This document shows positions 14,547-46,224 of a DNA stretch of 64,000 nucleotides, one piece after another. The stretch covers positions 5,455,427 to 5,519,426 of the forward strand of contig CBDETK010000013.1 of the NCBI GenBank assembly GCA_965242865.1, read 5' to 3'. Origin of the DNA: Candidatus Latescibacterota bacterium. Lineage in GTDB: Bacteria > Latescibacterota > UBA2968 > UBA8231. How positions within the stretch are numbered: position 1 is the stretch's first letter; the number at the start of each line of letters is the position of its first letter. The translations under genes were made by a program, and so were the position numbers. The notes beneath the pieces were generated by a model. It was not told where the DNA came from. It worked only from the letters and a program-made list of their open reading frames with translations, and searched no databases.

Positions 14547-14625
14547 TTGCGCTCTCCTATCGCGGTATCCCCCAGCGACTCCAATTTCGTTACCCAGCCA
14601 TTGAACCGAAGGCATTTAGCGCGAA

Positions 14626-15195: not shown

Positions 15196-15205
15196 TTCGT
15201 TCCTT

Positions 15206-15238: not shown

Positions 15239-15242
15239 GTAG

Positions 15243-15719: not shown

Positions 15720-15722
15720 GGC

Positions 15723-17081: not shown

Positions 17082-17102
17082 GCGATTCCCTTTTTTGTGC
17101 TT

Positions 17103-17235: not shown

Positions 17236-17277
17236 GAGATGCGGATACGACCGCCGCACACCGATCTACTAGGAATC

Positions 17278-17529: not shown

Positions 17530-17553
17530 GTCCTCTCCGTAGATTACGTCCGG

Positions 17554-17602
17554 CTACCTCGGCACCGCCAGCAGCATGGCGTCGAGTGAGGCGTTTTTTT
17601 CG
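17554..17602 (-). repeat. relic C of the DUF1156 methylase 3' end
   Basis: 17556-17586 is identical (31 nt) to 18865-18895. The minus strand reads ..SLDAMLLAVPR* with a TAG stop. The relic lies 24 nt upstream of the DUF433 ATG at 17529. Confidence 0.85.
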
Positions 17603-17615
17603 GAACCAATAGGAG

Positions 17616-17843
17616 TCATCGGTTCTGCGTGATGAGCCGACTTCTGCTTTCCTCGCGTGGCTTTGAGGGCGGCTTGGTTTCAAAGGGATTACTTACCCGA
17701 CTGCCGCTATCTTCCCACACTCCCAATTCTTCGAGTTCTCGGCGCATTTGTAGCGCCTCTTCGACGATCTTAGGATCAACCGCCGGATTCTTTGCGATCT
17801 GCTCTTTGGTGAGCATGGGCACAAGTAGGTCTTTTTTTAGCAT
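17616..17843 (-). CDS. small hypothetical protein (75 aa) downstream of the protease
   Basis: ORF starting 11 nt after the protease stop, with similarly lowered GC. Charged and helical-looking, with no motif. Confidence 0.4.
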   Translation of the reverse strand: MLKKDLLVPMLTKEQIAKNPAVDPKIVEEALQMRRELEELGVWEDSGSRVSNPFETKPPSKPREESRSRLITQNR

Positions 17844-17854
17844 AGAGACTCCTT

Positions 17855-18748
17855 TTAGGGGAAATAACGGTTATGGACTAGACTATTTGCTTCTTCCTTG
17901 AATGCAAGATCTCCGAAAAACCAGAAGTATTCCTTGATCAAGTTGCTCAACGTAGGATCGGCTTCTAAGTCATCAATTTTGAGCTTCAATTCAGCAAGAA
18001 CATCTCGGTTAATTCCACGTCCATGAGTACCCCATCTTTTTTGATCGTTAAGTGCTTGGGCGATTTCTTCCGCACGTTTCTCCTTTTCTTTTTGAGTAAC
18101 AGGTTTCTTTGTAGAACCGTGTGTTGACCAATCCTTGAATTTGTACTTTACAAGCCAATGTTGAATGAGTCGAACTGATAGCTCGGCTGCCAATTCATAT
18201 TGACGCAAATCAGCAGCATCAAGTTTCTGAAGCAGCACCAAATCCGCACTTGTCAGGGTGCCTTCTTCGGCTTTTTTGACAAAGCGTTCGTACTGTTCAA
18301 GATAAGAAAGAACCGATATAGGGATGGGTTTGTCTTCTATATACAATTGGGGATCAACCGGCCCCAAACAAGAGAAGTAGTCCATCAAAATTGCGTCCCC
18401 GGACATCACGAGCACCGTCCCTGCCGACATCGCCTTATCGGGAATGAGAAACTTCACCTCTTTGTAGTAATGCCTGAGCGTGGTAACAATGCGTTCGGCG
18501 ACCTCGACAATGCCACCAGTTGTATCAATGATCACGAGCGAACCTTCGCGGCGTTCCGGGACCCTTTCGATAGCCAACCTGACGCGGTGATCGACCGACT
18601 CCATGATTGGACCGAAAATTGTCAGCGCATCCATACAGGTATGCTTCTCAATTTCAGCGAGCTTGGAATTAAGCCACTCGACCGCGATTGAATCGCTCGT
18701 ATCTGGATTCTTTTGTGGGACCGGCTGCGCGGTGATGTCATCGGCCAT
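17855..18748 (-). CDS. SDH-family (serine dehydrogenase proteinase) ClpP/SppA-fold serine protease
   Basis: 297 aa. 'IIDTTGGIVEVAERIVTTLRHYYKEVKFLIPDKAMSAGTVLVMSGDAILMDYFSCLGPVDPQL' matches the family core with its nucleophile Ser in 'AMSAGT'. A hand count of one 60-nt line (18001) gives 27/60 G+C. Confidence 0.78.
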   Translation of the reverse strand: MADDITAQPVPQKNPDTSDSIAVEWLNSKLAEIEKHTCMDALTIFGPIMESVDHRVRLAIERVPERREGSLVIIDTTGGIVEVAERIVTTLRHYYKEVKFLIPDKAMSAGTVLVMSGDAILMDYFSCLGPVDPQLYIEDKPIPISVLSYLEQYERFVKKAEEGTLTSADLVLLQKLDAADLRQYELAAELSVRLIQHWLVKYKFKDWSTHGSTKKPVTQKEKEKRAEEIAQALNDQKRWGTHGRGINRDVLAELKLKIDDLEADPTLSNLIKEYFWFFGDLAFKEEANSLVHNRYFP

Positions 18749-18862: not shown

Positions 18863-21774
18863 TCACCTCGGCACCGCCAGCAGCATGGCGTCGAGGAGGC
18901 GTTTTTCGTTACAGCCTTGAGGGTAGAGGGCGGATAGGGCGTTGGCAAGGCGGAGGAAGTCGGGGCCGCGATCTTGCTCGGCGCTGATTAGCGTCCGTAG
19001 GGCGGTGGCGTGGCCGGTGGATTGGAGCAGCATGGCGGTGTGGACGCGGTCGAGGGTGGTGTCGCCAAGCGTGGCGGAAAGGGGGTCGTCGGAGGATTCG
19101 CCGTATTGTGGGCGCGGCTCCCGGACGAGCGTGGGGGTGCTGTCCTGCTGGTCGGGGAAGAGCGTCTGCTGGGCGTCGGCTCCGCTTTCGATGTACGTGG
19201 CTGCGGCGGCCGCGCCGTCTTCGCCGAAGAGCTTTTGGGCGCGCTCGGCTACGGAGAGGAGGCGCACGACGCCCTTTTCTTGGCCGATGATGCGGTCGGT
19301 TTGGGCGGCGAGGTCAATGCCCATGGGCTGGGCGAAGCGGCGCACGACATCGAAGGGGAGCGCGAATCCCGTGGCCGCGGCTTGGGCGACGGCTTCTTCG
19401 TCGGCCTCGTCGGCTTGGTCCTGATTTTCTGCAACAGGGGCCGTGCTCTGGAGCGTCCACAGGAAGAGCGCGGTTAGGCGGGCGTCCGCTTCCAATGCGC
19501 CGTGCGTTTGCGCCTCGGCCGTGCCGAGCACCTGTTGCAGGGCGGCGCGACCGACGACTTCCCAGACTTTTTCCAAGTAATCGGGCAGGCCGATTAGATC
19601 GCCTTCGGCGGTTTCGACAGCGCGGTAGCGGCTGAAAATTTCGAGGGCCGGGCCGATGCAGGCGAAAACCAGATCGGCCCCGCGGATGCCTTCGGCTTGC
19701 AAGCGGTCGATCCAGTCGGCGACGCGGACCGGCAGTTCGCGCAGGACATCGGCCCAATCGCCGATGGGGGCGTCGTCGGGACGGGGGCGGCAGATGAGGT
19801 GGACGCTGGTGGCGAGGGCAGCGGAATCGCGGGCGCGGAGACGGGTCGCGCTTTCGGTAGCAATCGGCCACGATCCGGTTATGGTCCAACCGCCGCGAAT
19901 CATGCCCGAGAGCAACGCTTCCCAGCCTTCCGTTGTTTTATGAGCGAAGACGACCGAGCCGATGCCTTCTTCGCTCAGTACGCGGCGACCTTCGGCAAAG
20001 GCTTTCGCCATCGTCTCCTCGAACCATGCGCGGTCTTTTGGGCGGCCGTCGGCCTGCTTGGTCTCGTCTTGTACGGCCTCGGCGGTCTTGGGCGAGAGCA
20101 GGTTGTCAGGATCGAAGGGATCGCGCAGTAGCGGATTGTTGGGTAGCGTACGTTTGAGCCAGACGAGGAAGAAGTCGGAGAGATCGGAATAGGGAATCGC
20201 GTCGTAGTACGGCGGGTCTGTGAAATAGACGCTGGTGGCTTGGTCGGGGAGTGGGTGGTCGGTGGCGTCGGCGGATTGAAGTTGGCCTGAAACTGCAGAT
20301 CGGGCGAATTGTATGACTTCACAAGTTGCACCTATACCTGATAGGAAAACCCCCCGCGCATTGCTCTTTGGTGTAGATTCACAGAAATCCCACACAATGG
20401 GAATGGCTTGACGTGCAAAGAGATTTACAGGGTTTTCAGCATTGCTTTCCCACCGAGTAAGGGAGTTGTTGCCATCCGCCATTCTGCCTAAAAGCAATGC
20501 GATTAGGGTTTGTTGAATGCTTGGCGTGAGCGTTACGCTAGATCGGCCCAACCCAACCAACGCCACCTTCTGCCGCGCCGTAAACAAATCCCCCCACTGC
20601 ATCATACCATATCGCTGCACACGAAAGCCCAACGTGCCGATTGGTGGCAACGGCTCATCCGGCACCGGGCAAAGCCCCTGCCGCCCACCCCGCTCCCACT
20701 CGTCCAACATCCGCGCCACCCGCTCCTGCGCCACCCGCACCGCCGCATAATCCGCCCCGTCTCGCCGGGCCGCACCGTCACCACCGCCGTCATCCGCGCC
20801 CCACCCGTCCGCCTTCCCTCCGCGTCAAAAACCACATCCGCGCCGCCCCGTTGGGCCGCAAGCTGCGCCCGCACCCGCTCCGGCGGCAGCACCGCGCCGC
20901 AGCACAAACAAGTCGCTCGCGCTCGCGCCACCGTGCCGCCGCGCACCTCTCGATCCGCCTGCGGCTCAACCACCGCAAACTCGACGCTCGGCGGCTCCCC
21001 CTCGCAACGCTCAACCCGATGCTGCAACGCCCGCTTGCGCTTGGCCTTCTTGCACAACCAAAACGAGCGCATCAGGGGAATCTCCGCGCCGCAGTTGGGC
21101 GCTTCGCAGCGCACCGTGCGCGCCCACAAGTAGGCAATCGGCGTGGCCCCATCCGGGTCCCTCGGATACAGCTCGGCCAATTCCCGCTCGGCCTGCCGCT
21201 TAATTTCGCCGCCGACCCGACGCAACTCCTCGGCCAGCCCCGGCCCGTGCCGCGGAATATCCTCCAGCATCACCTTGAGAATCAGACACGCCACCGGATT
21301 TAGGTCGCTGGCAAACGCCTCGCAACCCAGCCGCAACGCCTCCAGCGGAATCGACCCGCCGCCGGCAAACGGATCCACCACCAGCGGCGGCTCCGCGCCA
21401 TGCGCCGCTTGCACCAACGCCCGGCTCACGTCGAGATGGGTGCGGTCCGCCGCATTCTTCCAATTGGCAAAGTTGGCAATGAACGCCAGTAACCCCTGCC
21501 GCAGCTCCAAGTCATTCGCCAGCGGCTGCCGCACCGCGAGCAGAATGTTCCGCGCTTGCCGCTTAAAGTCCTCCGGACAGTGCGCGTCGCACGGGTCTGG
21601 CAGCAGCAACGCCAGCAACACCGCCCGCGACGAGGCCAACGGCCGCCGCGCCCACCACAAGTGCAACGTACTCGGATGCCCATGCCGAATCGACTTCTCC
21701 CGCGCCGCGTACTGAGAAACCTCAGCAATGGGAAAATCAACTTCGGCGAGACGTTTGCAGACGCGGGGGATCAT
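18863..21774 (-). pseudogene. DUF1156 (COG1743-type) Zn-ribbon DNA methyltransferase, interrupted by a 1-nt frameshift near 20752
   Basis: N-terminal ORF 20602..21774: 'EVDFPIAEVSQYAAREKSIRHGHPSTLHLWWARRP', the SAM-binding 'DPFAGGGSIPLEA' and Cys pairs 'CEAPNCG'/'CLCCG'. C-terminal ORF 18863..20740: 'FTDPPYYDAIPYSDLSDFF' (DPPY catalytic motif). The frames join as ..RPGETGR/DYAAVRVAQE.. only if one nucleotide is added in GGGGCGGATT. Confidence 0.85.
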
Positions 21775-22642: not shown

Positions 22643-25600
22643 TCACTCAGTTCCTGATTTTTGAACAATAAATGCTTTCATACCACCTGCATAGAATTGA
22701 ATTTGAACTTTATGACTTGACGATATACTAGTATCTATCATTGAATTTCTTTTTTTTAAGAAAAGAGGTATCTTATACTGAAGATCTATAATACGCACGT
22801 ATAATCTTTTTTTATATTTGACTATAACAGCATCAAATATCTCAGGATTACCTTCATCATCTTTCCAATAATCTTGCATACATAAGCTAGTTCTAAAACG
22901 TTGCTGAATTTTTCTCATGTGTCTCCTAAAATAAGAGAATTTTCTGTTATATGCTTCTGCGATACCCAAAAAGTAATGATATCTCATAGGGTCTTGTTCA
23001 AGTATAGGCCCATTAGAGCGAACTAAATCAAATAACTTAGATCGGCTGGCACTATGGTGTAAGTTACGCCCATAGTGCTGGAACAATAGCTTTGATACTT
23101 CATCTAAGTGAGTATATTTTTCAAGTTCACGCACCTTTGCACCTAAAGCATCCTCATCATTTTTCTGGGAGTAATAATAGAAGTATAAAATTAGGGCGTA
23201 TGGCTTTAAATCTTCTTTTTTATACAAGTCACTTATAAAATTGATATATTTTTCATCATTAGCAGAAGAAGAATGATGCTTTTTTCTATATCTGGCTTCT
23301 ATTTCGGCAATGGTTTCAATCCCTTCATGAAGCTGTCTTTTCGCTCGATCTAATAAATCTTCAATCGAAATTATACTACGCAATTCTGTTTCTTGGGTAA
23401 GAGAAAATGTTTCTAAATACCATATCTCAAACCGTAAGTATTCTCGGAAACTGTATATACTAAAGGGATCTTCTATCATTTTTATATAAAATAATTCCCT
23501 CGCTTCGTCAATATAAGGTTGTACTGCACTATGTATAACTTGCTCACGATCTAGCAACTGGGCTAGTTTAAAATTGAGAACTGCTCGTCGATGTGTTAAT
23601 CTGTGACTTCTTCGATATAAGAAACTTTCTGCATATATGATACGTTCGATGCCACGTTCTAAAGATTTCTGAGTTCCTCGGTATTGTAAATTTGTAGCGT
23701 AGTGAAGGTTGAAATGAGGATCATCAGAAAATTCATTTGCACATATATCATATAGATTATCAATCTTAGATTGTGTAAATTCTTCTGCCGTTATCATTGC
23801 TTTTAGTATATCTACAATTAAACGGGAATTATGAGGAGTATAAGTTAATTTTTTAAATATTTTTTGGTATTCCACAAATCTTTTATCTGAATCACTTAGA
23901 TACATCTCTATAAGTAAGTCTGAAATTACCGGATGACGAGTTCGAAAATATAGGTCGGGTTCATCTCCCGATATATTTTTTTCTTCTTGGACCAAAATTC
24001 CTTTTGCATCGTATTCTATGACGTCACGTTTGAATGTACCCCAATCTTTAGACACCAGTTTCATCAATAAACTGGAAGGCATTAAAATTTTGAATCTATA
24101 TAATAATGATGTATATAGAAATGACTCCTTAGCCTTTTCTGATAGTTGTTCATATGCGCTCCGTAATATCTGGTCATGATGTCCATCTGTAACTATGGAT
24201 AGCAGAGACACAAAAGCATCTCCTTTATAATCTCGAACAACCGTAGAGGCGAGAGAGTTTCTTTCTTTTTCATCTCTGACAGTGATAATCTTTGAGTCAT
24301 CTAATTTCTTAATCAGATCTGATGCTTCTTTTTTGTTAAAATTAGTATTGATCTCCAGTTGATGCAGGTTGGGATATGATCGGTTATGGGTTAATTTTTG
24401 TAGGATATTTTCCCTTATGGGAACCAGCATCACTATATTAGATCCAGAGAGTTGTTGTATGCTGAGATTCGACCGCAATTCAATCATTGATTTAAAGAAA
24501 CTGTCTACCTCACATTCATCAAATAGAAGCATGATATTTTCAGTGTCAACAGCACTGATTAGTTCACATAAATCTACTTCTCTAATATCTTGAGGCTCTA
24601 ATATCTCAAATACTGCTACATCTAAGTCAGAGTCAAGAATACTATGGACTAATCTATAGCAGAAAGTCGTTTTGCCGACACCATAGGATCCAGTTATTGC
24701 AATAATAGGAATTACAAATTCTTCAGAATTGAAAAATTGTTCTAATTTATTGATTATCTCTTTTTGACAATCTAATCTTATTACATCATAATTCTGCTTT
24801 ATCGCAAAATAAGATGGTCTTTCTCCCGTATAAAATTGCTCTGGTGAAATGTATTCAAATCTGGTATGTGGATTAATCTGGACAAGACTGCTTCCAAGCC
24901 TCTTAATAAGCCTATTAGATATATTTATGGGAGAACTGTCTTTTTGGCGAAACTGCGGTTTTCGCCTTCTTATAGCTGATTCTTCACTCGATTTTTCCCA
25001 ATCTTCATATTTTTGATAGAATTCAGAAGCAGTGCATTTTATAATTCTAATACTGCTGCTCTCAAGGTATGGTAGCATATCTTCCTGTATGGTGGGATCT
25101 ACCAATAGTATATCTCTCTTATTTCGGTAATTATATCGATCAAAACGATCAAGAAGAAATTTAGCAAACGGATCTCTAAATGAGTATCCAATCACGAGAA
25201 GTTGAATACGGGGCGAGATGTGTTCTAGGGCCTGTAACACTATCTTGTAAAAACCGTTAACGGATTCAAAATCTCTTGTTGAAAAAATGAATGGATATTT
25301 GGCTCTATCACTAATACAACCATTTAGCTTAATGTATTTTATCTCATCGTTTGCTGGATTGTAATGATATTCATGCAAATTTTTTGCAGGCTTCAGGATT
25401 TTATTTTCGTCCGATGTACTAAATACTCTATCAAAAGCCTTCTCAACTATAATATCCAAATTGGTCGTAATGATCTCTTTCCAAGGTAGGCGAGCAATTG
25501 TAGTATGAAATGCAGTGGGTTCTAGATTTCTAAGACATTTTTCTACTATATCATCAAACTCTTTGCGATCAAATTGAGGATTTCGACTAAGCACATCAAC

Positions 25601-25807
25601 ATATTCAATAATACTGTCGGTTTGATAACTATTTCCAGACTTTGCTTTGTGATAACCCATTAATTGACTACTTAGATACACATTATCATCGGTTATAGAA
25701 GCACCTGCGCCTAAGAACAGAATCGTATTACCCGATATGATATTAGGAAATATGTCTCTTCGTAAAGTTTCACTTCCTTTTTCTTGGACATCTGTTATAT
25801 GGTACAT
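22643..25807 (-). CDS. SIR2-like (SIR2_2) domain fused to a P-loop STAND-type NTPase and a long helical C-terminal region
   Basis: 1054 aa. N-terminus: 'ILFLGAGAS', 'ITTNLDIIVEKAF', 'IKLNGC' and 'VIGYSFRDP' (SIR2_2 pattern). Middle: Walker A 'ITGSYGVGKTT' and Walker B 'IMLLFDECEV'. Very AT-rich: line 22681 is 19/60 G+C, against 47/60 for line 20761 in the methylase. Confidence 0.82.
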   Translation of the reverse strand: MYHITDVQEKGSETLRRDIFPNIISGNTILFLGAGASITDDNVYLSSQLMGYHKAKSGNSYQTDSIIEYVDVLSRNPQFDRKEFDDIVEKCLRNLEPTAFHTTIARLPWKEIITTNLDIIVEKAFDRVFSTSDENKILKPAKNLHEYHYNPANDEIKYIKLNGCISDRAKYPFIFSTRDFESVNGFYKIVLQALEHISPRIQLLVIGYSFRDPFAKFLLDRFDRYNYRNKRDILLVDPTIQEDMLPYLESSSIRIIKCTASEFYQKYEDWEKSSEESAIRRRKPQFRQKDSSPINISNRLIKRLGSSLVQINPHTRFEYISPEQFYTGERPSYFAIKQNYDVIRLDCQKEIINKLEQFFNSEEFVIPIIAITGSYGVGKTTFCYRLVHSILDSDLDVAVFEILEPQDIREVDLCELISAVDTENIMLLFDECEVDSFFKSMIELRSNLSIQQLSGSNIVMLVPIRENILQKLTHNRSYPNLHQLEINTNFNKKEASDLIKKLDDSKIITVRDEKERNSLASTVVRDYKGDAFVSLLSIVTDGHHDQILRSAYEQLSEKAKESFLYTSLLYRFKILMPSSLLMKLVSKDWGTFKRDVIEYDAKGILVQEEKNISGDEPDLYFRTRHPVISDLLIEMYLSDSDKRFVEYQKIFKKLTYTPHNSRLIVDILKAMITAEEFTQSKIDNLYDICANEFSDDPHFNLHYATNLQYRGTQKSLERGIERIIYAESFLYRRSHRLTHRRAVLNFKLAQLLDREQVIHSAVQPYIDEARELFYIKMIEDPFSIYSFREYLRFEIWYLETFSLTQETELRSIISIEDLLDRAKRQLHEGIETIAEIEARYRKKHHSSSANDEKYINFISDLYKKEDLKPYALILYFYYYSQKNDEDALGAKVRELEKYTHLDEVSKLLFQHYGRNLHHSASRSKLFDLVRSNGPILEQDPMRYHYFLGIAEAYNRKFSYFRRHMRKIQQRFRTSLCMQDYWKDDEGNPEIFDAVIVKYKKRLYVRIIDLQYKIPLFLKKRNSMIDTSISSSHKVQIQFYAGGMKAFIVQKSGTE

Positions 25808-26078: not shown

Positions 26079-26202
26079 CCCACCACAAGTGCAGCGTACT
26101 CGGATGCCCATGCCGAATCTACTTCTCCCGCGCCGCGTGCTTGGAAACCTCGGCAATGGGAAAATCGACTTCAGCGAGACACTTGCATTCATGAGGGATC
26201 AT
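26079..26202 (-). pseudogene. relic of the DUF1156 methylase 5' end (first 41 codons, with a premature TAG)
   Basis: 124 nt align without gaps to 21651-21774, with 15 mismatches by manual count. The relic reads MIPHECKCLAEVDFPIAEVSKHAAREK* against the genuine MIPRVCKRLAEVDFPIAEVSQYAAREKSIRHG.. Its ATG overlaps the HEPN-1 stop (ATGA). Confidence 0.88.
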
Positions 26203-26594
26203 AGTACGCGTTTCTCGGCCCAACGGACGACGGCTTCGGCGATAGTGATGGCTTCGGCGTACTCCTGAGCGGTAACAGGCTCTATATCGCCGGGATAGCG
26301 CGTGGTGGTGGCGTATTTAGTCAACTTGCAGGCTTGACTGATCGGTGCTGGTATGACTTCTCCCTCGTCTTCGAGTAGTGATAATAGGCGGTCGAGATCA
26401 TGCACGTAAGGGAACTCGATGTTGCGTACGATCATCACGGCCTTGATAGATTTTTCGGCGGCCTGCTGAGCATTGAAGCACAAATTTTCGAGATAGACCC
26501 CGGGCACCTCGTTCTTTGCTTGAGTCAGGTCGCTTCGGGCGCGGTTTATCCATTCCCGGGGATCGCCAGGCGGAAAGCGTTCAGGAGGCTTCAT
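26199..26594 (-). CDS. HEPN domain protein (toxin-like), pair 1
   Basis: From the ATG at 26594: 'MKPPERFPPGDPREWINRARSDL..A......LCFNAQQAAEKSIKAV...FPYVHDL' is a classical HEPN (PF05168-like) pattern. It is the same length as pair 2 and has a 14-nt overlap with its MNT. Confidence 0.85.
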   Translation of the reverse strand: MKPPERFPPGDPREWINRARSDLTQAKNEVPGVYLENLCFNAQQAAEKSIKAVMIVRNIEFPYVHDLDRLLSLLEDEGEVIPAPISQACKLTKYATTTRYPGDIEPVTAQEYAEAITIAEAVVRWAEKRVL

Positions 26595-26895
26595 AGACGA
26601 TCCTTCCTTCCTGTAGGGCGGGCTTGATGACCAATGCGTGGGTGTCCTTATACCGCTCGACCGATTGGGGCGTGACGACGATGGCGTCAACTGCTGCGCC
26701 AACCCTGTGCAGGTTCTGATAAATCTGCCCCATAAGTTCAAGCGGGTTCGCGCACTCTTTTATAATAAGCAGATCGACATCGCTGTGGCGGTTCATGTCG
26801 CCGCGAGCAGCCGACCCAAAGAGAATGATTTTCTCTGGTTGGGCAACTTTCACAATGCGGCGAATAATGTCGTCCAGAATCGCTTGTTCGAGCAT
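26581..26895 (-). CDS. minimal nucleotidyltransferase (MNT, antitoxin-like), pair 1
   Basis: 'ILFGSAARGDMNRHSDVDLLII' (GSxxRG..DxD). Start chosen at MLEQAIL to match paralog 27338..27652. Confidence 0.85.
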   Translation of the reverse strand: MLEQAILDDIIRRIVKVAQPEKIILFGSAARGDMNRHSDVDLLIIKECANPLELMGQIYQNLHRVGAAVDAIVVTPQSVERYKDTHALVIKPALQEGRIVYEAS

Positions 26896-26955
26896 CTTCT
26901 TAATCCCACGTTCTATCGTTTGCAATCACGTTGAATGGCGTGTACCGATTGCGGA

Positions 26956-27351
26956 TTAGCCCACAAGTTCCCCGGCCCAGCGGACGACGTTTGTGGCGAT
27001 CTCTATCGCTTCGGCGTACTCCTGAGCGGTAACAGGCCCTGTGTCGCCGGGATAGCGCGTGGTGGTGGCAAATGGAGTGAGCTTTCTGGCCTGTCCAACG
27101 GCGTCCGGGATCGCTTCGCCTGCTGCCTTGAGCAGGGAAAGCAATCGGGCCAAATCATGCACGTAGGGAAAGCCGATGCCGCGCTTGAGCATCACCGCCT
27201 TAATCGCTTTCTCAGCGGCTTGCTGTGCATCAAAGCACAAGTCTTCAAGATAGGCACCGGGAGTGCGGTCTTTTGCCCGAACCAAATTGCTTCTGGCTCG
27301 ATTCATCCACTCTCGTGGGTCGTCCGATGGAAAGCGTTCAGGCGGCTTCAT
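26956..27351 (-). CDS. HEPN domain protein (toxin-like), pair 2
   Basis: 131-aa paralog of 26199..26594 ('LCFDAQQAAEKAIKAV...FPYVHDL'). Confidence 0.85.
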   Translation of the reverse strand: MKPPERFPSDDPREWMNRARSNLVRAKDRTPGAYLEDLCFDAQQAAEKAIKAVMLKRGIGFPYVHDLARLLSLLKAAGEAIPDAVGQARKLTPFATTTRYPGDTGPVTAQEYAEAIEIATNVVRWAGELVG

Positions 27352-27652
27352 ACACCACCTTTCCCTCCTGTAGAGCGGGCTTTATTACCAGCGCGTGGCT
27401 GTCCTTATACCGCTCTACAGAGTCGGGCGTGACGACGATAGCATCGACGGCTGCCCCGACGCCATCGAGATTCATATAAATATCACCCATGAGTTCAAGC
27501 GCGTTCGCGCATTCTTTTATAATGAGCAGATCGACATCGCTATGGCGGTTCATGTCGCCGCGAGCGGCCGACCCAAAGAGAATGATCTTCTCCGGTTGAG
27601 CCACTTCTATAATGCGGCGAATAATGTCGTCCAGAATCGCTTGTTCGAGCAT
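27338..27652 (-). CDS. minimal nucleotidyltransferase (MNT, antitoxin-like), pair 2
   Basis: 104-aa paralog of 26581..26895 ('ILFGSAARGDMNRHSDVDLLII'). Confidence 0.85.
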   Translation of the reverse strand: MLEQAILDDIIRRIIEVAQPEKIILFGSAARGDMNRHSDVDLLIIKECANALELMGDIYMNLDGVGAAVDAIVVTPDSVERYKDSHALVIKPALQEGKVVYEAA

Positions 27653-27688: not shown

Positions 27689-28924
27689 TCACGACGGTTT
27701 CGGCTCCTTCCACAAGCGGACGATGAAGCGGTGCTCTTCCTCGATCAGGTCCGGCTCAGTGCCGTTGTGGTCTCGCATAGCTCTAATAATCCGATTGCGT
27801 ACACCCATGCCAAAATGCTCAACATAGCCGTAATCTCGAAGGATTTCTTTTAGCAATTCATTTCTGGCGGCCCGTAAACCTTCCTTCATCTTCTCTACCG
27901 TCACTCCATTAGGAAGACGCCCGGGCGAGATTACTTCTAGGCGATCACGATACAAAGAGACTTCGATGTCTGTGCCGACGAGCGTATAATCGCGGTGTGC
28001 AACCGCATTCACGATGGTTTCACGAACCGCGGCCCGTGGAAGCGACTTCTTGCGGCGTCTCCTTCCACCATCGAGCCACGCGACAGAGCCCATGTTACGG
28101 GCTACGAAATCTACCGCTCGGTCAATGACCCCCTTATCCATAACACTTTTTTTTGCCGATAACATCGGAACGAGAGGACCTCGAATCAGTTCTTCATCTA
28201 CAGTATTGTACGCCTTTTCATTTTCTGGGAACGCCGCCGCCGTAATGCCCGACTGCGGCAGCCTGCGGTTCGGGTTCTTGCCGAAGAGGAGCAAGCCCGC
28301 GACTGTTCCGACAGTCGTTCCCGCCGCTTCCGCAAGAAGATCAATGCTCACAAGAACTCGACGCCATTCTTCGGTATTCTGCGCCGTTGGCACATCGCGC
28401 TTCTGGATAACACGAAAGTAGTTCCCGATTCGGTCCAGATCGAGTTCCTCCAGTCCCGTCTCAAGTACGGGCTTGATGTCATAGCGCATGATACGGGCTG
28501 ACTGGTAGAGGCGTCCTTCTTCATCGCGACTTGCCTCTCGTGAACTGCTACCGACCCGCACGAACGTCCACCAAGCTTTGCCGCGTTTAGCCTTGTACGG
28601 CTTATCCGGCGCATCGCTAGGAAGAGATACTATGCCGACGGTTTTCCCCTCTCCCCAGTCCACGGTCTCCCAGTAGGGGATCGTCGCCGGACGGATGTGG
28701 GTACGCGCAGTTTCCATCACCCATTCTTCGACTTTGCTCGGCTCGCAGGTGAGACCGGAAACCGAGCCATCGTCCTCGACGCCGAGGAGAATGTGCCCAC
28801 CTTCTAGGTTGAGTAGGGCGGCGATTTCAGTGGCGAGTCGTTCGGGGCGAACGTCGGAGCGCTTGAACTCCACGCCGGAACTCTCGCCATTGCGGATTAG
28901 TTCGATCAAATCGGTTTTGTTCAT
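27689..28924 (-). CDS. COG2865-type protein (AlbA_2/Schlafen-like N-domain plus HATPase_c_4-like and wHTH C-terminal part), copy a
   Basis: 411 aa. 'LIRNGESSGVEFKR' (AlbA_2 N-terminus) and 'VNAVAHRDY...ISPGRLP' (C-terminal module). It starts 8 nt after the PHP-ATPase stop. Confidence 0.78.
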   Translation of the reverse strand: MNKTDLIELIRNGESSGVEFKRSDVRPERLATEIAALLNLEGGHILLGVEDDGSVSGLTCEPSKVEEWVMETARTHIRPATIPYWETVDWGEGKTVGIVSLPSDAPDKPYKAKRGKAWWTFVRVGSSSREASRDEEGRLYQSARIMRYDIKPVLETGLEELDLDRIGNYFRVIQKRDVPTAQNTEEWRRVLVSIDLLAEAAGTTVGTVAGLLLFGKNPNRRLPQSGITAAAFPENEKAYNTVDEELIRGPLVPMLSAKKSVMDKGVIDRAVDFVARNMGSVAWLDGGRRRRKKSLPRAAVRETIVNAVAHRDYTLVGTDIEVSLYRDRLEVISPGRLPNGVTVEKMKEGLRAARNELLKEILRDYGYVEHFGMGVRNRIIRAMRDHNGTEPDLIEEEHRFIVRLWKEPKPS

Positions 28925-28932
28925 AGTTCACC

Positions 28933-31644
28933 TCAGAATCCGTATTTCCGGCGGCGACGCTCAAAAGCATCCTTGCCACCTTCGAGAATCTCCTCAACCA
29001 TTTCCCGCACCGGGTGTGCATCAATGGAGCCTATATGTTTGGGATCAATGTAGGCATTCCCCTCGTCCCCACCTCCAGTGGCGGTGAGGCCAACGATCAG
29101 TTCGGCGTCCCCAAGCACCAAGATGTTGGCATTGTGAGTCGAGAAGACGAATTGGCGACGGCGTTTCTCCTCGCGCATTCTGGGAACCACCCCTTCGGTG
29201 ATGAATCGGTTGTCGAGGTCGTCCTCCGGCTGATCGACGATGAGCGGCGCATCGGACTCTAGCAGGAGGAGCAGCAACACAGCGGTCGCTTTTTGGCCCG
29301 TTGAGAGCGCTTCGAGTGCTTGCCATGACGGCGGTTTGCCGGAAGGAGCCGTGTTGAGCTGGATTGTGGTCGCGGGGGAAAGTTCCAACTCTTCAATGTG
29401 CATCAAAGTCTCGGCCGACGCCTCGGCAAGCCGTTGCGCTTGGGCTGGTGGAATTTTGTAGGTTCGGTGAACGGCATCCGCGCCTGTCCGACAGCTATCG
29501 ACGAATTGCGGCAGCGAGAAGTTCTCCGCTCGGGCGAGGATGGCTAAGGCCTCGGAGAGACGGCCGCGGATCTCATCGCGGAGCAACCGGATCAGCAGCT
29601 CGCGGTTGCCTGCGGCGGTGACCGCCACTTGGACGCGGGGGCGCAGTTTCTTGCTGACTGCTTGCGCGGCTCTGTCCAAACTCCTGAACTCCTCCGCTTT
29701 GATATCTTCCCATTCGGCGAGCAGCATACGCCGTCGTTCAAGGAGTTCTTTTTCTAACCGTTTCAATAAGAACTTGCGCTCCCCGAGCGGGCGAAGGTTC
29801 TCGATTTCGCGCCTAAGACGAATGAACTCTTGCCCGTCTATTGCCGATTTCTGAAGCTCGCGCAGAATTTTCTCATAGTCGGCTTGGACCTTTTCTTGGC
29901 ACTCGTTCCAGCGAGCGCGGATTTCGGCGATTCCTTCATCTGCTTGCTTTAGTGCTTCTGCAAGTTGACCCGCCAATTTATCGAGATTAGTGCTCAGGCT
30001 TTCCAATATGTCATTGCCGCCCGCAAGAATTTTCTTACCCGGTAGATCTCGGAGTGCCCTTTCAGACAAGAACACCCGGTCTATCGGGAGCTCTTGGCGG
30101 AGAAGATCGAGGCATTCGCGGAAATTCTGTAGGCGCTCGGGCATCGAATTGAGCACCCGCTCCTCGCGTACGAGCAAGCTCTTTTCTCGCAGGCGATCTT
30201 CAAGACCGACTTCTCGAAAGCGTTCTAGGGTCTCCTCAAGTCTTGGCAGGGCGGCTAGACGCTCCTCGATTTGCTGGAGCTCGGTGCATACCTCTACTAT
30301 GGACCGCCGCGTCTTCTCGAGTTCTCGGCGGAGATCGGCCTTGCGCCGGGCCGAGGAATGGTCTCGCTCGACGAAGCGGTCGAGAAGGCGCGTGAGCTTT
30401 TCGGGACTCTTGGTGAGTTCGGAAATTTCGTGCTGTCCGTACACCTCGACGCGAGGGAGTATCTCTTTTGGAAGCAGGTTCGACATATTGCCGTCCTCCT
30501 CGCGCACCACGGGCGGGTTTGGAATGGTCCGCTCAATGCGGTACTCGCGTGGCGCCGGGCGGTCACAGCGCACGAGAAGCGAGACTTTCGTCCCGCTGCG
30601 GAGCACTTGGCGCACGATTCCTTTGTGGGCCTTGTCGGCCTCCTCGCCGATAGGCTCCAATCCGAGCGCGTAGCGCAGGCTCTCGATGATGGTTGATTTG
30701 CCGGTGCCGCGCCCGCCGACTAAGACGTTCATGTTCGGATTGAAGCGAATGGCTGCACCATCCAGAAAGCCACCTTCCCAAGTCAGGGAAACGAGTTCGG
30801 CGTGGTCGTCGGGCGTGGAGTCGCTGTTCAGCCGAATTCTCGACCCGGGATCGAGAAAAGCCTGCCGTAGCCCCTCAACCGTGATCTCGGACATCTTGAT
30901 CCAGCATGTAGCCGAAGGGTCTTTCAGATCGCTCGGCTTAACGACATCCTTCGCGTTGATCGCGGCTACGGCTAGATTTTCATCTGCGGGATGGTTTCGC
31001 TGATAGTCTGGATTCTCGTTCTGGACAATTGGACGTACCTCGGGGGGCAGGCTGGCGACAGGCCCAGGGATCTGGATCGCGAGCAGGTCTTTAGCACGCC
31101 ATGCGTTGATCCGCGCTTGGCCTTCGAGTGCTTTGAAAAGCCCTTTGGCGTTTGTCACGTGCGCGGCGATGGCGACTCCGCCCTGTTGCTCGACCATTGT
31201 AAGTACCTTGTCGAACGGCTCGCTCGACAAATTCGCTGAAGGGCCAGTCTTTCGGATTCTAAACTCGCCTAGAAACCGATCCAAACTGTTCTTATCAGCA
31301 TTCGGCGGATAGATGCACAGGATGTGAATGCCTTCAGACGAAGAGAGCTCGAAACCGGGGAATATCGTGACGTTGGTATGTTGGGCGGCTTCTTGGAACG
31401 CGGCTACTCCGCTCGCGTCGTTGTGATCGGTGATGGCGAGCACGGAGACGCCGATTTCGACTGCCTGCTCGACAATGGCTTTCGCGTGCTCGCGAGCATC
31501 GCCGCTGGTTTGCTGGCCTCGGAAGGTTGCGCCGTAGCCGTGTGGGTTTACTTGGAGGGCGCATCGATGAAATACAGCACCCGCTGGCAACCCGCTGGCC
31601 TTGGCGATAGGGTCCTTAGCCCTCACACTCGACATGGTCTCCAT
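28933..31644 (-). CDS. PHP-domain phosphoesterase fused to an SMC/ABC-like coiled-coil ATPase (Ppl-like / TrlF-like architecture)
   Basis: 'FHRCALQVNPHGY', 'AITDHND', 'GFELSS' and 'IAAHV' (PHP motifs). Walker A 'GGRGTGKST', a long coiled coil, then 'LSTGQKA', 'LIVDQPEDDLD' and 'VFSTHNANI'. The start at ATG 31644 (METMSS) has GAGAGGG upstream. The longer track start 31731 overlaps the neighbouring relic. Confidence 0.85.
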   Translation of the reverse strand: METMSSVRAKDPIAKASGLPAGAVFHRCALQVNPHGYGATFRGQQTSGDAREHAKAIVEQAVEIGVSVLAITDHNDASGVAAFQEAAQHTNVTIFPGFELSSSEGIHILCIYPPNADKNSLDRFLGEFRIRKTGPSANLSSEPFDKVLTMVEQQGGVAIAAHVTNAKGLFKALEGQARINAWRAKDLLAIQIPGPVASLPPEVRPIVQNENPDYQRNHPADENLAVAAINAKDVVKPSDLKDPSATCWIKMSEITVEGLRQAFLDPGSRIRLNSDSTPDDHAELVSLTWEGGFLDGAAIRFNPNMNVLVGGRGTGKSTIIESLRYALGLEPIGEEADKAHKGIVRQVLRSGTKVSLLVRCDRPAPREYRIERTIPNPPVVREEDGNMSNLLPKEILPRVEVYGQHEISELTKSPEKLTRLLDRFVERDHSSARRKADLRRELEKTRRSIVEVCTELQQIEERLAALPRLEETLERFREVGLEDRLREKSLLVREERVLNSMPERLQNFRECLDLLRQELPIDRVFLSERALRDLPGKKILAGGNDILESLSTNLDKLAGQLAEALKQADEGIAEIRARWNECQEKVQADYEKILRELQKSAIDGQEFIRLRREIENLRPLGERKFLLKRLEKELLERRRMLLAEWEDIKAEEFRSLDRAAQAVSKKLRPRVQVAVTAAGNRELLIRLLRDEIRGRLSEALAILARAENFSLPQFVDSCRTGADAVHRTYKIPPAQAQRLAEASAETLMHIEELELSPATTIQLNTAPSGKPPSWQALEALSTGQKATAVLLLLLLESDAPLIVDQPEDDLDNRFITEGVVPRMREEKRRRQFVFSTHNANILVLGDAELIVGLTATGGGDEGNAYIDPKHIGSIDAHPVREMVEEILEGGKDAFERRRRKYGF

Positions 31645-31654
31645 TTTGGCCCTC

Positions 31655-31906
31655 TCATTCGTCCCGTGTTTTCCATTTTTCAGAAGTCTTTTGACCTTCC
31701 CTAACTTCCACCGGCTGCTTGAGCGCGTCAACGCTCAGATAGTAGTGAGCTACCTTGGTGACCTCGTGCCACGGAAATCGCACGGGGTCTCGGATCGGCT
31801 CTTGAAGCTCTGGCGCACTCGCGCAGTGGGTCACCACGTAGAGCCAGTAGCAGTCGCGGCGATCCTCGGCGACGCGCCGCTCGTTGGGCGTCAGCAGGAT
31901 AAGGAA
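31655..31906 (-). pseudogene. C-terminal fragment of a PD-(D/E)xK / DUF3883-like nuclease domain, no usable start
   Basis: Manual translation directly after an in-frame TAA (31907-31909) gives FLILLTPNERRVAEDRRDCYWLYVVTHCASAPELQEPIRDPVRF... This matches the 'f.LT.NE...A.....Y.LYvV.....P.l..I.DP' tail I remember for DUF3883-type domains. The upstream catalytic part is absent. Confidence 0.35.
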
Positions 31907-32095
31907 TTAGGGCTTTTTCGTTGAGCCAAGCGGTCGCCTCGGGCCGTGCGGCTATCGGCGGCCGATTTGTGAAATCCTCAATGAACCGCAAGAATACCTC
32001 TATTTTCTCGACGTGCATCACACGAAAAGTATCGGCGTAATCTGAGCAACCTAGACACATCGTGCATCTTCCCCGATCTAGCTGTTTTGAAAGAG

Positions 32096-33646
32096 TCATC
32101 TGAAGCTTATAAAGCTGAAGCGGTTTCGTTTCAACTCAGCCAAAAACGCTTGGCCTTCGCCTCTCAGCGTTTCCTCGCGCCACACTTGATAGATCAGGAG
32201 CCAGAAGCGGTCCTTCTCTTGGGTCTCCATATCCTTCAACTTATTGGCGCGTCTTCGTATCGCCTCCCGAATTCTCTTAATCCTGTAGCGTTTTGCGTAC
32301 TTTAGTAGTAACACATCCGAGAGGCAGTCATCTATCGCGATGACCTCTATGAACTTGTCCTCCAGCGTACTCAACTGAAGGTTATGTTTGAGCGAGTAAT
32401 ACAAGGCATGGGCGATGGCATCCGAATAGATTCTCTGAATTCCAATCACTAGGAGATGTTCAATAAAATCAAGAATGACTTTCTCGATTCCATCATAGCG
32501 ATGCTTGTCGAACACGTGCTTGTCTAAGATTGGAGCAAGATATGGATATAGCAGTGCCAAGTTGATAGTCTCCTGAACGAAGAGACGCTTAGCTCGGCTA
32601 TCGAGACTCGGAGGCACCATCTTGATAGCGTAGTTCAAAACGGCATAGGTCTCCGCTCCATGCGCTAGTTTCAGTGCCAAGTCCAGGAGCGAACGAACCT
32701 TCCCGAAGCGAACGGTTGCGCCTTTGGCTGGCAATCGGAAGTTGTTCAACTCTCGAACCCAGTCTTTTTGGATTGGAAGTGGCATCGGCAAGATTTCAGT
32801 CTTACGGTCGTTCAGAACAAGCTCGTATTCGCGCAGTTGCATCCCAAGGTCATGGATGAATTTCTCAGCTTCGTCATAGGTTTTCGCGTAAAAGGTGTAA
32901 TCGTCAATATAGCGGCTAAACCTCTCGTATCCCTTCTTGGTCATCTCATAATCAATTCTGGTCAGTATTATCTCTGAGACGACGTTGGATGAGTGTGGCC
33001 CGATCAAGATCCCATTGGTTTGTCCATCTCGGATACCCTGGGTGGCTTTGTCCAGAAGATTTCCTGCCAATAAGACCGAGCGGCACTTTTTCGACTTACT
33101 ACGACCATGTAGGGCCCATGGGATTGAATGAGTGTAGATGCTGGGAAAGCAATTTGATATATCAGTGTAAACGACATAATGCGCTCCCATCATTTCGCGA
33201 ATGTCTATTTCTTCATGCTCGAAGTGTTCCTTTCCCTTGTAATTCATTCGGAAAACACGCTCACTTGACGTTTTCCGAACAAAGAGACGGCTCACGGGTG
33301 TCTTCGGTTTTGCGCAGTGCCCTTTAATTGTCGCCCAATGCTGCTTCAGGGCTAGACACTGGACAAGGTGGCTTTCGGGATGGGGAACCCCCATCTGACG
33401 AGGGATATTGACGGCGTGTAGTGGTTCGTAGCGGATGAAATCGTGCTTTCGTTTCTTAAAGGTCTTATCCAAATTTTTTGAGTCTTTTTCTGTTGTTGGC
33501 TTTAGAAGAATGTTCGGGGCATAGGCTGAAAGCCCTTTGGAGGTAAAACATGGCGGAAGTTTTTCACTGAATAGGCCATAGTCAACCAAGCCTATGAATG
33601 CTTCGTCCTCCGAAAGGCCGAGCCCTGTCGTTTGTCTCCTTACCAT
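32096..33646 (-). CDS. reverse transcriptase, stand-alone Abi/UG (defence-associated) type with a helical C-terminal domain
   Basis: 516 aa. 'YTDISNCFPSIYTHSIPWAL' (RT motifs 1-2), 'GILIGPHSSNVVSE' (motif 4) and 'RYIDDYTFY' (YxDD catalytic motif 5). There is no maturase or endonuclease domain, and only 45 nt of upstream spacer. Confidence 0.86.
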   Translation of the reverse strand: MVRRQTTGLGLSEDEAFIGLVDYGLFSEKLPPCFTSKGLSAYAPNILLKPTTEKDSKNLDKTFKKRKHDFIRYEPLHAVNIPRQMGVPHPESHLVQCLALKQHWATIKGHCAKPKTPVSRLFVRKTSSERVFRMNYKGKEHFEHEEIDIREMMGAHYVVYTDISNCFPSIYTHSIPWALHGRSKSKKCRSVLLAGNLLDKATQGIRDGQTNGILIGPHSSNVVSEIILTRIDYEMTKKGYERFSRYIDDYTFYAKTYDEAEKFIHDLGMQLREYELVLNDRKTEILPMPLPIQKDWVRELNNFRLPAKGATVRFGKVRSLLDLALKLAHGAETYAVLNYAIKMVPPSLDSRAKRLFVQETINLALLYPYLAPILDKHVFDKHRYDGIEKVILDFIEHLLVIGIQRIYSDAIAHALYYSLKHNLQLSTLEDKFIEVIAIDDCLSDVLLLKYAKRYRIKRIREAIRRRANKLKDMETQEKDRFWLLIYQVWREETLRGEGQAFLAELKRNRFSFISFR

Positions 33647-33691
33647 AGAAATCTCCTTTGAGGACTGTCGCCTTCAAGTGACCGAGGCTGC

Positions 33692-34930
33692 CTACCCTGT
33701 GCTGCGCTCTTTCCACAGCCGAACCGTGAAGCGGTAATCCTCCGCTATCAGGTCCGGCTCGGTGCCGTTGTGGGCCAACATGCCGGGAATGATCTTGTTC
33801 CGCACGCCCATTCCACGCGCATCCACATAGCCGTAGTCGCGCATCACGTTGACTAGCGTCTGATTGCGGGCGTAGCGCAGTCCCAAGCGCATCCCGGCCG
33901 GCGTCACCGTGTTGGGCAAGCGACCCGGGCTGACCACTTCGAGGCGGTCGGAGAATATGACCAGCATGATGTCCGTTCCCACGATGCTATAATCGCGGTG
34001 TACTAGGGCGTTGGCCACGGCCTCGCGCACCGCTTCTTCGGGAAATTCCCAGCGGTCAATCCGCCGCGCCCCTTCCAAGTAGGCGGAAGGCGTCGTATTG
34101 CGCCGCACGAAATCCCACGCCTTATCTACAAGCCCCAGCTTGACAAACTCCCCATCCTCGGGGTCGCAGAGCGGAACCATAGGACCGTTGAGATCCTCGT
34201 CCGCACGGGTTGCATAATCCGGCTCCCGGCCTACGTAGCAAATCGCGCGAATGCCCGATTGCGGAAGAAACCGCTTGGGGTTCTTGCCGAACAGGAGCAT
34301 TCCGTCCACGGTTGCGACCATCCGGCCCGCTGTTGGGGTCGCAAGTTCGAGGTTTTGCAGCAGCCTTTGCCATTGATCGACATCGCTTGCCGGCGGAACG
34401 CTGCTGCCCAGAACGCGGCCAAAGTAATCGCGCAAGTGCCGCTGGCTGAGCGAGTCGATTGCCGTGCCGAGGACGGGCTTTAAGCCGTAACGGAACAGTC
34501 CCCCTTGTAAGTAGAGCCGTTCTTCTTCCTCGCGGCCAGCGGCTCGCGTGGTAGTACCGACGCGTACCTGAGTAACCCAATTTTCTCCGCGCTTAGCCTT
34601 GTACGGCTTATCCGGCGCATCGCGAGGCAGAGATATAATGCCGACGGTTTTCCCCTCTCCCCAGTCCACGGTCTCCCAATAGGGAATCGTCGCCGGCAAA
34701 ACGTGGGTACGCGCCGTTTCCATCACCCATTCTTCGACCTTGCGCGGCTCTCGCATGAGACCGGTAACCGAGCCATTGTCTTCGACGCCGAGGAAAATGT
34801 ACCCGCCTTCGAGATTGAGTAGAGCCACAATTTCCGCGGCGAGTCGTTCCGGGCGAAGATCGGCGCGTTTGAACTCCACGCCGGAGTTCTCGCCGCTGCG
34901 AATCAGTTCGACTAAGTCGTCTTTGTTCAT
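33692..34930 (-). CDS. COG2865-type protein (AlbA_2-like N-domain plus HATPase_c_4-like/wHTH), copy b
   Basis: 412-aa paralog of 27689..28924. I count 19 differences in the first 114 residues of the two track translations. Confidence 0.78.
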   Translation of the reverse strand: MNKDDLVELIRSGENSGVEFKRADLRPERLAAEIVALLNLEGGYIFLGVEDNGSVTGLMREPRKVEEWVMETARTHVLPATIPYWETVDWGEGKTVGIISLPRDAPDKPYKAKRGENWVTQVRVGTTTRAAGREEEERLYLQGGLFRYGLKPVLGTAIDSLSQRHLRDYFGRVLGSSVPPASDVDQWQRLLQNLELATPTAGRMVATVDGMLLFGKNPKRFLPQSGIRAICYVGREPDYATRADEDLNGPMVPLCDPEDGEFVKLGLVDKAWDFVRRNTTPSAYLEGARRIDRWEFPEEAVREAVANALVHRDYSIVGTDIMLVIFSDRLEVVSPGRLPNTVTPAGMRLGLRYARNQTLVNVMRDYGYVDARGMGVRNKIIPGMLAHNGTEPDLIAEDYRFTVRLWKERSTG

Positions 34931-46215: not shown

Positions 46216-46224
46216 AAGGAAACA

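Follow-up and report, generated by a model that had tools for sequence, protein, structure and literature searches.

The block at positions 27689-34930 of a 64,000-nt stretch of a Candidatus Latescibacterota genome (contig CBDETK010000013.1; hereafter the window) is very probably a mosaic of independent cassettes within a degraded helicase-methylase-ATPase (Hma) locus. The cassettes are a reverse transcriptase (RT) of the DRT4 clade, a TrlF-TrlG gene pair, an orphan TrlG allele and a relic of hmaA. TrlF is a PHP-ATPase, and the two COG2865 proteins of the block, COG2865-a and COG2865-b, are named TrlG-a and TrlG-b here. An earlier note on this DNA had offered two readings of the block, a composite RT-based system or two single-gene systems captured between duplicated anchors. 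All five features were found on the minus strand at the coordinates given in that note, and its gene order, its spacings of 45, 10 and 8 nt and its ATGA overlap were reproduced (Table 1).

The loci of the RT and of TrlF were collected separately. For the RT, one genome per species was scanned with an RT alignment, which gave 79 loci at 33-82% identity. For TrlF, metagenome contigs were scanned with an alignment of TrlF homologues, which gave 80 loci at 56-70% identity (individual loci are cited by L numbers). No TrlF gene was found within 10 kb of the RT in any of the 79 RT loci, and no RT within 8 kb of TrlF in any of the 80 TrlF loci. COG2865-like sequence was present in six of the 79 RT loci, and the other 73 had none within 10 kb.

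The contexts of the closest relatives were decisive, because several of them occupy the same chromosomal site as the window, flanked by TPR/FG-GAP genes and a DUF4432 gene. At this site, L181 carries intact hmaA, trlF, trlG, MNT, HEPN and hmaB in this order and no RT, and L179 and L178 likewise carry TrlFG and no RT. The RT is present and TrlFG absent in L083/84, L166 and L167-169. Both occur together in the window and in L080/81, where TrlF is 90-93% and TrlG-a 95% identical to the window proteins. Since L080/81 represents the same site in a close relative, it was counted as one event and not as independent support. The RT and TrlFG are independent of each other in genomic occurrence.

In the composite reading, all five genes act jointly: a DNA product made by the RT would be acted on by the PHP/SMC-like ATPase as effector, with the COG2865 pair as regulators. 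The earlier note had proposed co-occurrence of the RT and the PHP-ATPase beyond chance as a check of this reading; the counts above and the layouts at the shared site therefore speak against it, because no such co-occurrence was found and sister genomes have the RT alone or TrlFG alone. The five-gene order is kept in L080/81, the single event already mentioned. The genes are also co-directional, with gaps of 8-45 nt and one ATGA overlap, and no terminator-like site was found inside the block by promoter and terminator consensus scans, which returned fewer sites than shuffled sequences and were uninformative. However, tight packing on one strand is normal for cargo of Hma loci, 96.7% of which has the same orientation according to published work, and DRT4 was experimentally shown to be a single-gene system (PMC12783706). 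We therefore regard a composite system as scarcely credible. The second reading of the earlier note came closer. Its independent cargo was borne out, but COG2865-a is the partner of TrlF and not an anchor, COG2865-b is an orphan TrlG allele, and the true frame is the degraded Hma locus, which had not been recognized.

A narrower alternative joins only trlG-b and the RT in a local two-gene module, in which the Schlafen/GHKL protein would regulate or partner DRT4 in this clade. A TrlG-b-type sequence lies immediately 5' of every Hma-located RT relative at 74-89% identity (L080, L083/84, L166, L167-169 and L003-005), in many cases with overlap of stop and start, and a piece of about 180 nt from the 3' end of trlG-b persists even in the stand-alone locus L165. 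Nevertheless, TrlG-b shrinks across these loci (412, 270, about 100 and 0 aa) while the RT open reading frame (ORF) stays intact throughout. It is full length in the window and L080, is reduced to a 270-aa GHKL-only ORF in L083 and L166 and to 91-128 aa in L167-169, is fragmentary in L003-005, and is lacking in L001, L008 and L170. Full-length TrlG-b homologues also exist without an RT, and the 73 wider RT loci free of COG2865 genes count against the module as well. This pattern fits one ancestral event in which the RT was inserted behind a trlG, followed by decay, and a working TrlG-b-RT module seems quite improbable. Most simply, the RT arrived there once, and the two genes have since been kept or lost independently; TrlG-b may have been left beside the RT by recombination.

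TrlF was matched by the NCBIfam profile TrlF_fam_ATP with 513.2 bits (cut-off 350; residues 51-931 on profile positions 2-944). Its Pfam matches were PHP together with AAA_23, AAA_21 and SMC_N, and in its architecture a PHP phosphoesterase at the N terminus is joined to a Rad50/SMC-like ABC ATPase that carries a coiled-coil insert. The Walker A motif GGRGTGKS, the signature STGQK, the Walker B/D-loop DQPEDDLD and the H-loop STH were invariant in 14 TrlF homologues. The earlier note had likened this architecture to that of Ppl, a single-gene PHP-ATPase defense protein (Gao et al. 2020), and had given the annotation 'TrlF family'. The family name was right, and the likeness to Ppl is one of architecture only. 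The NCBIfam profile Ppl_antiphage gave 195.3 bits and did not reach its equivalog cut-off of 1000, and the PADLOC Ppl profile (E=9.5e-42) matched two stretches, the best-scoring of which spans residues 805-926, that is, the C-terminal ATPase end only. A sequence search of the PDB with TrlF returned only SMC-head P-loop matches and therefore gave no structural lead.

A COG2865 (TrlG) gene begins 6-45 nt past the trlF stop in 79 of the 79 TrlF loci with room for it; in the one remaining locus only 2 nt are left after trlF. In about one-third of the loci, the downstream gene is nearer to TrlG-b than to TrlG-a of the window, with 72% identity in L118, 70% in L152 and a further case in L150. Therefore, both window paralogs belong to the TrlG family. 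By gene order and homology, TrlF and TrlG-a are taken to be a separate two-gene module.

The same pair is known from Photorhabdus laumondii, in which the operon trlR-trlF-trlG forms the 'temperature restricting locus' (TRL; Hapeshi et al. 2020, PMC7554251). In this operon, trlF encodes a large protein annotated as 'histidinol phosphatase', and TrlG contains AlbA_2 (14-128) and HATPase_c_4 (298-365). The TRL causes a temperature-triggered growth arrest, known from Photorhabdus alone, and this arrest is lost by substitutions in TrlG, including S16N, and never by mutations in TrlF (PMC7554251). Literature searches on the Ppl mechanism and on COG2865 yielded no prior account of TrlF-TrlG as a phage-defense system.

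TrlG-a and TrlG-b are 59% identical overall. The nuclease motif E(x)4(D/E)xK corresponds to E14, E19 and K21, and these residues were invariant in 31 TrlG sequences, as were N39, G42 and G43 of the N..GG box and E302 and N306 of the GHKL domain. An AlphaFold2 (AF2) model of TrlG-a, with a predicted local distance difference test (pLDDT) score of 70, was compared by Foldseek. In this comparison, the predicted fold agreed with 3lmm, a COG2865 structure, along its whole length (E=1e-16), and domain by domain the model resembled SLFN13/SLFN14 and GHKL kinases. The combination of a Schlafen AlbA_2 domain with a GHKL ATPase has been termed 'Schlatpase', and in SLFN-pAgo ATP drives tetramerization and tRNA is cleaved (bioRxiv 10.64898/2026.05.29.728809); the motif definitions used here were taken from that work.

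TrlG-b is, judging from its relatives, an orphan allele of the TrlG family without a TrlF of its own. Its homologues in L174-177 are full length, 87-88% identical and b-like over their whole length; they occur without TrlF or RT and are followed by MNT-HEPN genes. The two window paralogs differ at exactly 19 of their first 114 residues, which confirmed the count of the earlier note. The repeat finder reported 300 nt at 83% identity (28505-28804 and 34511-34810), and the longest identical DNA runs were 41 nt (28632-28672 and 34638-34678) and 31 nt.

At residues identical between TrlG-a and TrlG-b, the same codon was used with a frequency of 0.77 in codons 1-118 and 0.46 beyond, compared with a background of 0.38-0.46 against orthologues. 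Furthermore, TrlG-b and its counterpart in L080 are 77% identical in the C-terminal part and 47% in the N-terminal domain. Therefore, the N-terminal nuclease domain has moved between allele lineages, and TrlG-a and TrlG-b have exchanged this domain. Conservation was considered as the cause of the N-terminal similarity and was rejected, since this domain diverges most (57-69% identity among orthologous TrlGs, against 72-75% for the remainder) and the sharing of synonymous codons is restricted to the a/b pair. The earlier note had suggested that the paralogs recombine and could exchange or excise the RT/PHP-ATPase segment. Exchange was supported for codons 1-118; the expected excision product, a chimeric trlG beside DUF4432, was not found in any genome examined.

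TrlG alleles are also shuffled relative to TrlF. The identities of TrlG and TrlF were nearly uncoupled over 2,485 pairs (Spearman 0.14). Where two TrlFs were 80-90% identical, the median identity of their TrlGs was 56%. L178 is an example, with a TrlF 89% and a TrlG about 49% identical to those of the window. TrlG alleles and domains are thus swapped far faster than TrlF diverges. This shuffling and the recent exchange of the a/b N-terminal domains would fit a further alternative, in which TrlG-b is a working second partner of the single TrlF and alternative Schlatpase alleles broaden recognition or resistance, like alternative specificity subunits. TrlG-b is intact with all catalytic motifs, and two TrlG-like genes accompany one TrlF in L080, L085 and L104. 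However, such loci are rare (about 3 of 80), and near-identical TrlG-b alleles persist as orphans without any TrlF, so TrlG-b does not need TrlF. A second-partner role is accordingly a minor possibility, which we consider unlikely. In L085, the additional gene (2186-3733) encodes a 515-aa COG2865 protein with a C-terminal Fic-like_C domain; it lies between hmaA and a duplicated NOV_C tail, 5' of a normal trlF-trlG, and is a second case of two TrlG-like genes with one TrlF.

The RT matched Pfam RVT_1, and the PADLOC profile PDLC02178 (Drt4) covered residues 11-514 on profile positions 12-501 of 506 (E=1.8e-152). The solved UG15/DRT4 structure 21ou_A was matched over residues 29-489 (phmmer, 175 bits, E=3e-50). 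DRT4 is a class 1 UG/Abi defense RT (Gao et al. 2020; mechanism in Wang et al., Nat Commun 2025, PMC12783706). In the characterized enzyme, Tyr125 primes and D240/D241 are catalytic (PMC12783706). In the alignment to 21ou_A, Tyr125 corresponds to Y136 of the window RT, which was invariant among 26 RT homologues, and D240/D241 to D248/D249. The motif YIDD reported by the earlier note was located as RYIDDY at residues 245-250. Neither tRNA genes nor Rfam families were detected in scans of the whole window, which thus lacks an att-type tRNA site as well as retron, DRT and group II intron RNAs. The profile matches place the RT in the DRT4/UG15 clade, which agrees with its earlier description as an Abi/UG type resembling protein-priming Abi RTs, with no room upstream for a retron- or DRT-type non-coding RNA (ncRNA). 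Close relatives at 78-85% identity stand alone between core genes in L001, L008, L165 and L170.

The start of the small ORF 3' of the RT overlaps the RT stop as ATGA at 32099-32096, as read directly from the sequence. Its conserved part, 's51', is 72-75% identical to a 51-aa ORF 3' of the RT in L083/L084, L080-82 and L005 (L083 11548-11700; L005 11547-11693). It contains a C-x2-C motif (CTMCLGC) and is present after Hma-embedded RT copies, whereas it does not follow the stand-alone RTs of L001, L008 and L165, where homology stops by 20 nt past the RT stop. A Pfam search with the small ORF gave no family match. In the window, it extends into the hmaA relic, giving an ORF of 123 codons.

Other RT loci were also noted. 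One Latescibacterota genome contains two copies of a unit of trlG-b tail and RT (L003 11389-12947 and L004 11344-13375), each broken near the RT 3' end by an insertion of 1.5-2 kb at sites about 45 nt apart. In Candidatus Multivorans, an RT 57% identical to the window RT lies directly 3' of hmaC (L020 1-11542) in the order hmaA, small ORF, TIR (ThsB-like), hmaB, hmaC and RT, and the RT loci L016 and L021 have hma genes in their flanks as well. Therefore, DRT4-type RTs are tied to Hma in another lineage, though at a different position.

The region at 10.4-34.9 kb of the window is, from its gene content, a degraded Hma locus, and the GC profile placed the block in a foreign island at about 10-35 kb (genome GC content 62-69%). 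Hma is the helicase-methylase-ATPase defense system (Payne et al. 2021; bioRxiv 10.1101/2024.01.29.577857; Liu et al. 2024, PMC11232893). These accounts describe other defense genes as very often embedded between hma genes, which makes Hma loci recognized hotspots of such insertions, and insertions of Septu, PARIS and Ppl are reported in Halomonas hma (PMC11232893). The tight co-directional packing of the block is thus the normal look of Hma cargo. Flanking hma genes were present in 45 of the 80 TrlFG loci, including both hmaA and hmaB in 27 cases, and in 10 of the 79 RT loci.

HmaA is an SNF2 helicase with a C-terminal NOV_C nuclease, of which only relics of about 300 nt are left in the window. 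The nuclease-tail relic that the earlier note had placed before the PHP-ATPase is real and represents the 3' end of hmaA: positions 31655-31900 translate to a C-terminal NOV_C fragment (Pfam E=1e-5), and a NOV_C protein from a related locus matches this tail with its residues 146-215 at 74% identity (tblastn). The relics are 84% and 82% identical to hmaA of L166 (blastn). At the same site, L181, L083 and L166 each have an intact hmaA, and an intact hmaA-trlF junction is found in L181 and L087. In L087, PADLOC recognized an intact HmaA (E=3e-168), and the gene 3' of trlG matches HmaB. In the window as well, hmaA very probably once preceded trlF, and only its NOV_C tail survives there.

The two window ORFs of hmaB were both matched by PADLOC HmaB (E=2.8e-54 and 3.3e-61; profile positions 6-182 and 480-799). 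They overlap by 139 nt in different frames, and hmaB is probably frameshifted. It is likewise split in L167 and L179 and intact (989-990 aa) in L083 and L181. The split hmaB and the lost hmaA point to decay of the Hma scaffold in this lineage, with the cargo left intact; in the window, the scaffold is probably dead.

The whole block could also be decaying junk, the leftovers of a dying Hma island without current function. The hmaA relics, the split hmaB, a truncated ABC ATPase and the fusion of the small ORF to the hmaA fragment would fit such decay. Nevertheless, the four large ORFs of the block are all full length and keep their invariant catalytic residues, and close relatives retain them at 82-97% identity, which makes loss of function of the block very unlikely.

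Several further observations weigh against the mosaic of independent cassettes in a Hma locus as preferred here. Hma itself looks broken in the window. The trlG-b/RT junction with its overlapping stop and start is conserved in the closest RT relatives (L080, L083 and L166), and the 270-aa GHKL-only remnant of trlG-b is retained as an intact ORF in two loci, which leaves room for a local link between the two genes at the level of transcription or function. Distant plasmid-borne members of the TrlF family (30-36% identity) are solo, without TrlG, and the pairing is thus a property of this TrlF subfamily. Finally, the NCBIfam Drt4 profile gave 424.7 bits (E=5.5e-127), just below its equivalog cut-off of 450; therefore, the RT is termed a member of the DRT4 clade and not a strict equivalog.

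Table 1. Features of the block and of the surrounding Hma locus, in window coordinates.
Feature	Position	Strand	Description
TrlG-b (COG2865-b)	33692..34930	minus	412 aa, intact; AlbA_2 + HATPase_c_4 (Pfam); 45-nt gap to RT
RT, DRT4/UG15	32096..33646	minus	516 aa; YIDD 246-249; putative priming Tyr136
Small ORF, full reading frame	31728..32099	minus	123 codons; ATGA overlap with RT stop
Small conserved ORF, 's51' part	31962..32099	minus	about 46-51 codons; runs on into hmaA relic
hmaA relics	31655..31966	minus	56-nt piece 31966-31911 and NOV_C tail 31901-31696; frame ends at 31655
60-codon ORF	31655..31837	minus	other frame than small ORF; 10 nt before trlF ATG 31644
TrlF (PHP-ATPase)	28933..31644	minus	903 aa from ATG 31644; 8-nt gap to TrlG-a
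TrlG-a (COG2865-a)	27689..28924	minus	411 aa; AlbA_2 + HATPase_c_4 (Pfam)
Recombined 5' segment of trlG-a	28505..28924	minus	counterpart in trlG-b 34511-34930
Two MNT-HEPN toxin-antitoxin-like pairs	26199..27652	minus	Pfam NTP_transf_2 + HEPN
SIR2-STAND NTPase gene	22643..25807	minus	1054 aa; Pfam SIR2_2 + nSTAND_NTPase5; in insert of 33-36% GC
hmaB (DUF1156 DNA methylase), split	18863..21774	minus	ORFs 21774..20602 and 20740..18863
Cargo between hmaB and hmaC	13302..18748	minus	HEC-01A/NsnB-like ABC ATPases, 158-aa ORF, SDH-type protease; Pfam AAA_21/AAA_15, SDH_protease; PADLOC HEC-01A, NsnB
hmaC (DUF499 ATPase)	10429..13173	minus	914 aa; PADLOC HmaC E=1.6e-93, profile 1-846 of 941; Pfam DUF499; distal end of Hma locus

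A ribosome-binding-like GAGGG precedes the start codon of trlF. The MNT-HEPN genes that follow TrlG-a in the window are additional cargo of the Hma locus and are also found 3' of TrlG in L080, L181 and L179. The first 128 nt of hmaB are present twice at 88% identity (21647-21774 and 26075-26202), on either side of the SIR2-STAND insert, which looks like a cassette placed at the 5' end of hmaB, with this part of the gene duplicated.

Similar duplications were observed at hmaA. A second copy of the NOV_C tail, with 45-209 nt aligned at 79-97% identity to the resident copy, is present in L085, L088, L089, L090, L093, L127, L146 and L080. It lies 3' of an inserted cassette, directly before trlF or after trlG, and the cassettes carry Fic/DOC, Fic-like_C, an extra COG2865 gene or AAA_21-DUF4276. 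These duplicated tails suggest that cargo may enter by recombination at conserved ends of hma genes.

Three HEC-01A/NsnB-type ABC-ATPase genes lie between hmaB and hmaC (window 13302-17081). One of them, of 209 aa, joins the N- and C-terminal ends of the HEC-01A profile, so it appears internally deleted; the 158-aa ORF among these genes had no family match. Outside the Hma island, positions 43015-49229 encode a 1066-aa Upf1-like SF1 helicase (AAA_11/AAA_12) followed on the same strand by proteins of 367 and 647 aa without a Pfam match, and this region may be another defense-type operon.

By analogy with the characterized DRT4, the RT would act alone, prime on its own tyrosine Y136 and synthesize random single-stranded DNA (ssDNA) without a template. 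This product would become toxic when a phage DNA-binding protein protects it from host exonucleases, and abortive infection would follow. For the gene pair, we infer a division of labor, together with all biochemical activities, in which TrlF would sense or process foreign DNA and TrlG would be the growth-arresting effector through ATP-driven oligomerization and cleavage of RNA or tRNA. Such an effector role of TrlG fits Photorhabdus, in which loss-of-function mutations of trlG, including S16N in the nuclease motif, abolish the growth arrest.

Each element of the block belongs to a known family or system. Mildly interesting are the pairing of TrlF with TrlG and its link to Hma, the shuffling of TrlG and the duplicated hma ends. 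This TrlF subfamily has a Schlafen-GHKL partner in every locus examined, and over half of the pairs sampled are located within or beside Hma loci. The pairing, the Hma association and the swapping of TrlG make TrlF-TrlG a good candidate for a phage-defense module, and the temperature restriction of Photorhabdus could be explained by misfiring of such an abortive-infection-type module. The duplicated ends of hma genes around cargo hint at how embedded cassettes might be acquired. For annotation, tight packing on one strand in a scaffold such as Hma is not evidence for a joint mechanism, and the present block is easily misannotated as a new RT-based system of several genes.

A broader idea is offered tentatively, and we consider it possible but doubtful as a whole. 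TrlF-TrlG would be a widespread, unrecognized two-gene defense system with an exchangeable Schlafen-GHKL effector, and it would at the same time be Hma cargo swapped by homologous recombination. In this proposal, a conserved TrlF pairs with a TrlG in which the N-terminal nuclease domain recombines separately from the C-terminal part, and orphan alleles such as TrlG-b might serve as a reservoir or as alternative partners. Exchange might proceed through short conserved gene ends of which copies stand on both sides of inserted cassettes: the NOV_C tail of hmaA, the initial 128 nt of hmaB and the 5' region of trlG. If this were true, Hma would be an integron-like platform without a dedicated integrase.

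Compared with known systems, the window RT resembles DRT4 in its full-length profile match, YxDD palm, helical C-terminal domain, conserved putative priming tyrosine, lack of an ncRNA and stand-alone close relatives. The characterized DRT4 is protein-primed, produces untemplated random ssDNA and kills the cell once a phage DNA-binding protein shields this ssDNA from exonucleases (PMC12783706). The window RT differs in being only modestly similar in sequence to the solved enzyme, in lying mostly inside Hma loci in its lineage, behind trlG or a trlG remnant, and in the small conserved ORF at its 3' side.

The window resembles Hma loci in having hmaB and hmaC on the same strand with co-directional cargo between hma genes; the intact order hmaA-trlF-trlG-(MNT-HEPN)-hmaB is present in the related loci L181 and L087. 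It differs in that hmaA is only a relic and hmaB is split, and TrlF-TrlG and DRT4 are absent among the embedded systems named in the available parts of the Hma accounts.

Both window paralogs share with Schlatpases the E(x)4(D/E)xK motif, the N..GG Schlafen box and the GHKL E/N motif. Unlike SLFN-pAgo, they lack an Argonaute or other sensor domain; their partner is the separate PHP-ATPase TrlF, or there is none, and tRNA cleavage would be expected only by analogy. TrlF, like Ppl, combines a PHP phosphoesterase with an ABC ATPase and a coiled-coil insert, but Ppl works alone, whereas the window TrlF subfamily is always followed by TrlG.

The Photorhabdus TRL contains the same two proteins in the same order as the window pair, and Ser16, which is mutated in temperature-tolerant Photorhabdus, falls in the invariant nuclease motif of the window TrlGs. 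The surroundings differ: no trlR-like regulator is evident before the window trlF, where the hmaA relic and a small ORF without a Pfam match lie, and the window pair is embedded in Hma, whereas the Photorhabdus operon lies between polA and dsbA. Furthermore, the known phenotype of the Photorhabdus operon is a temperature-triggered growth arrest and not phage defense.

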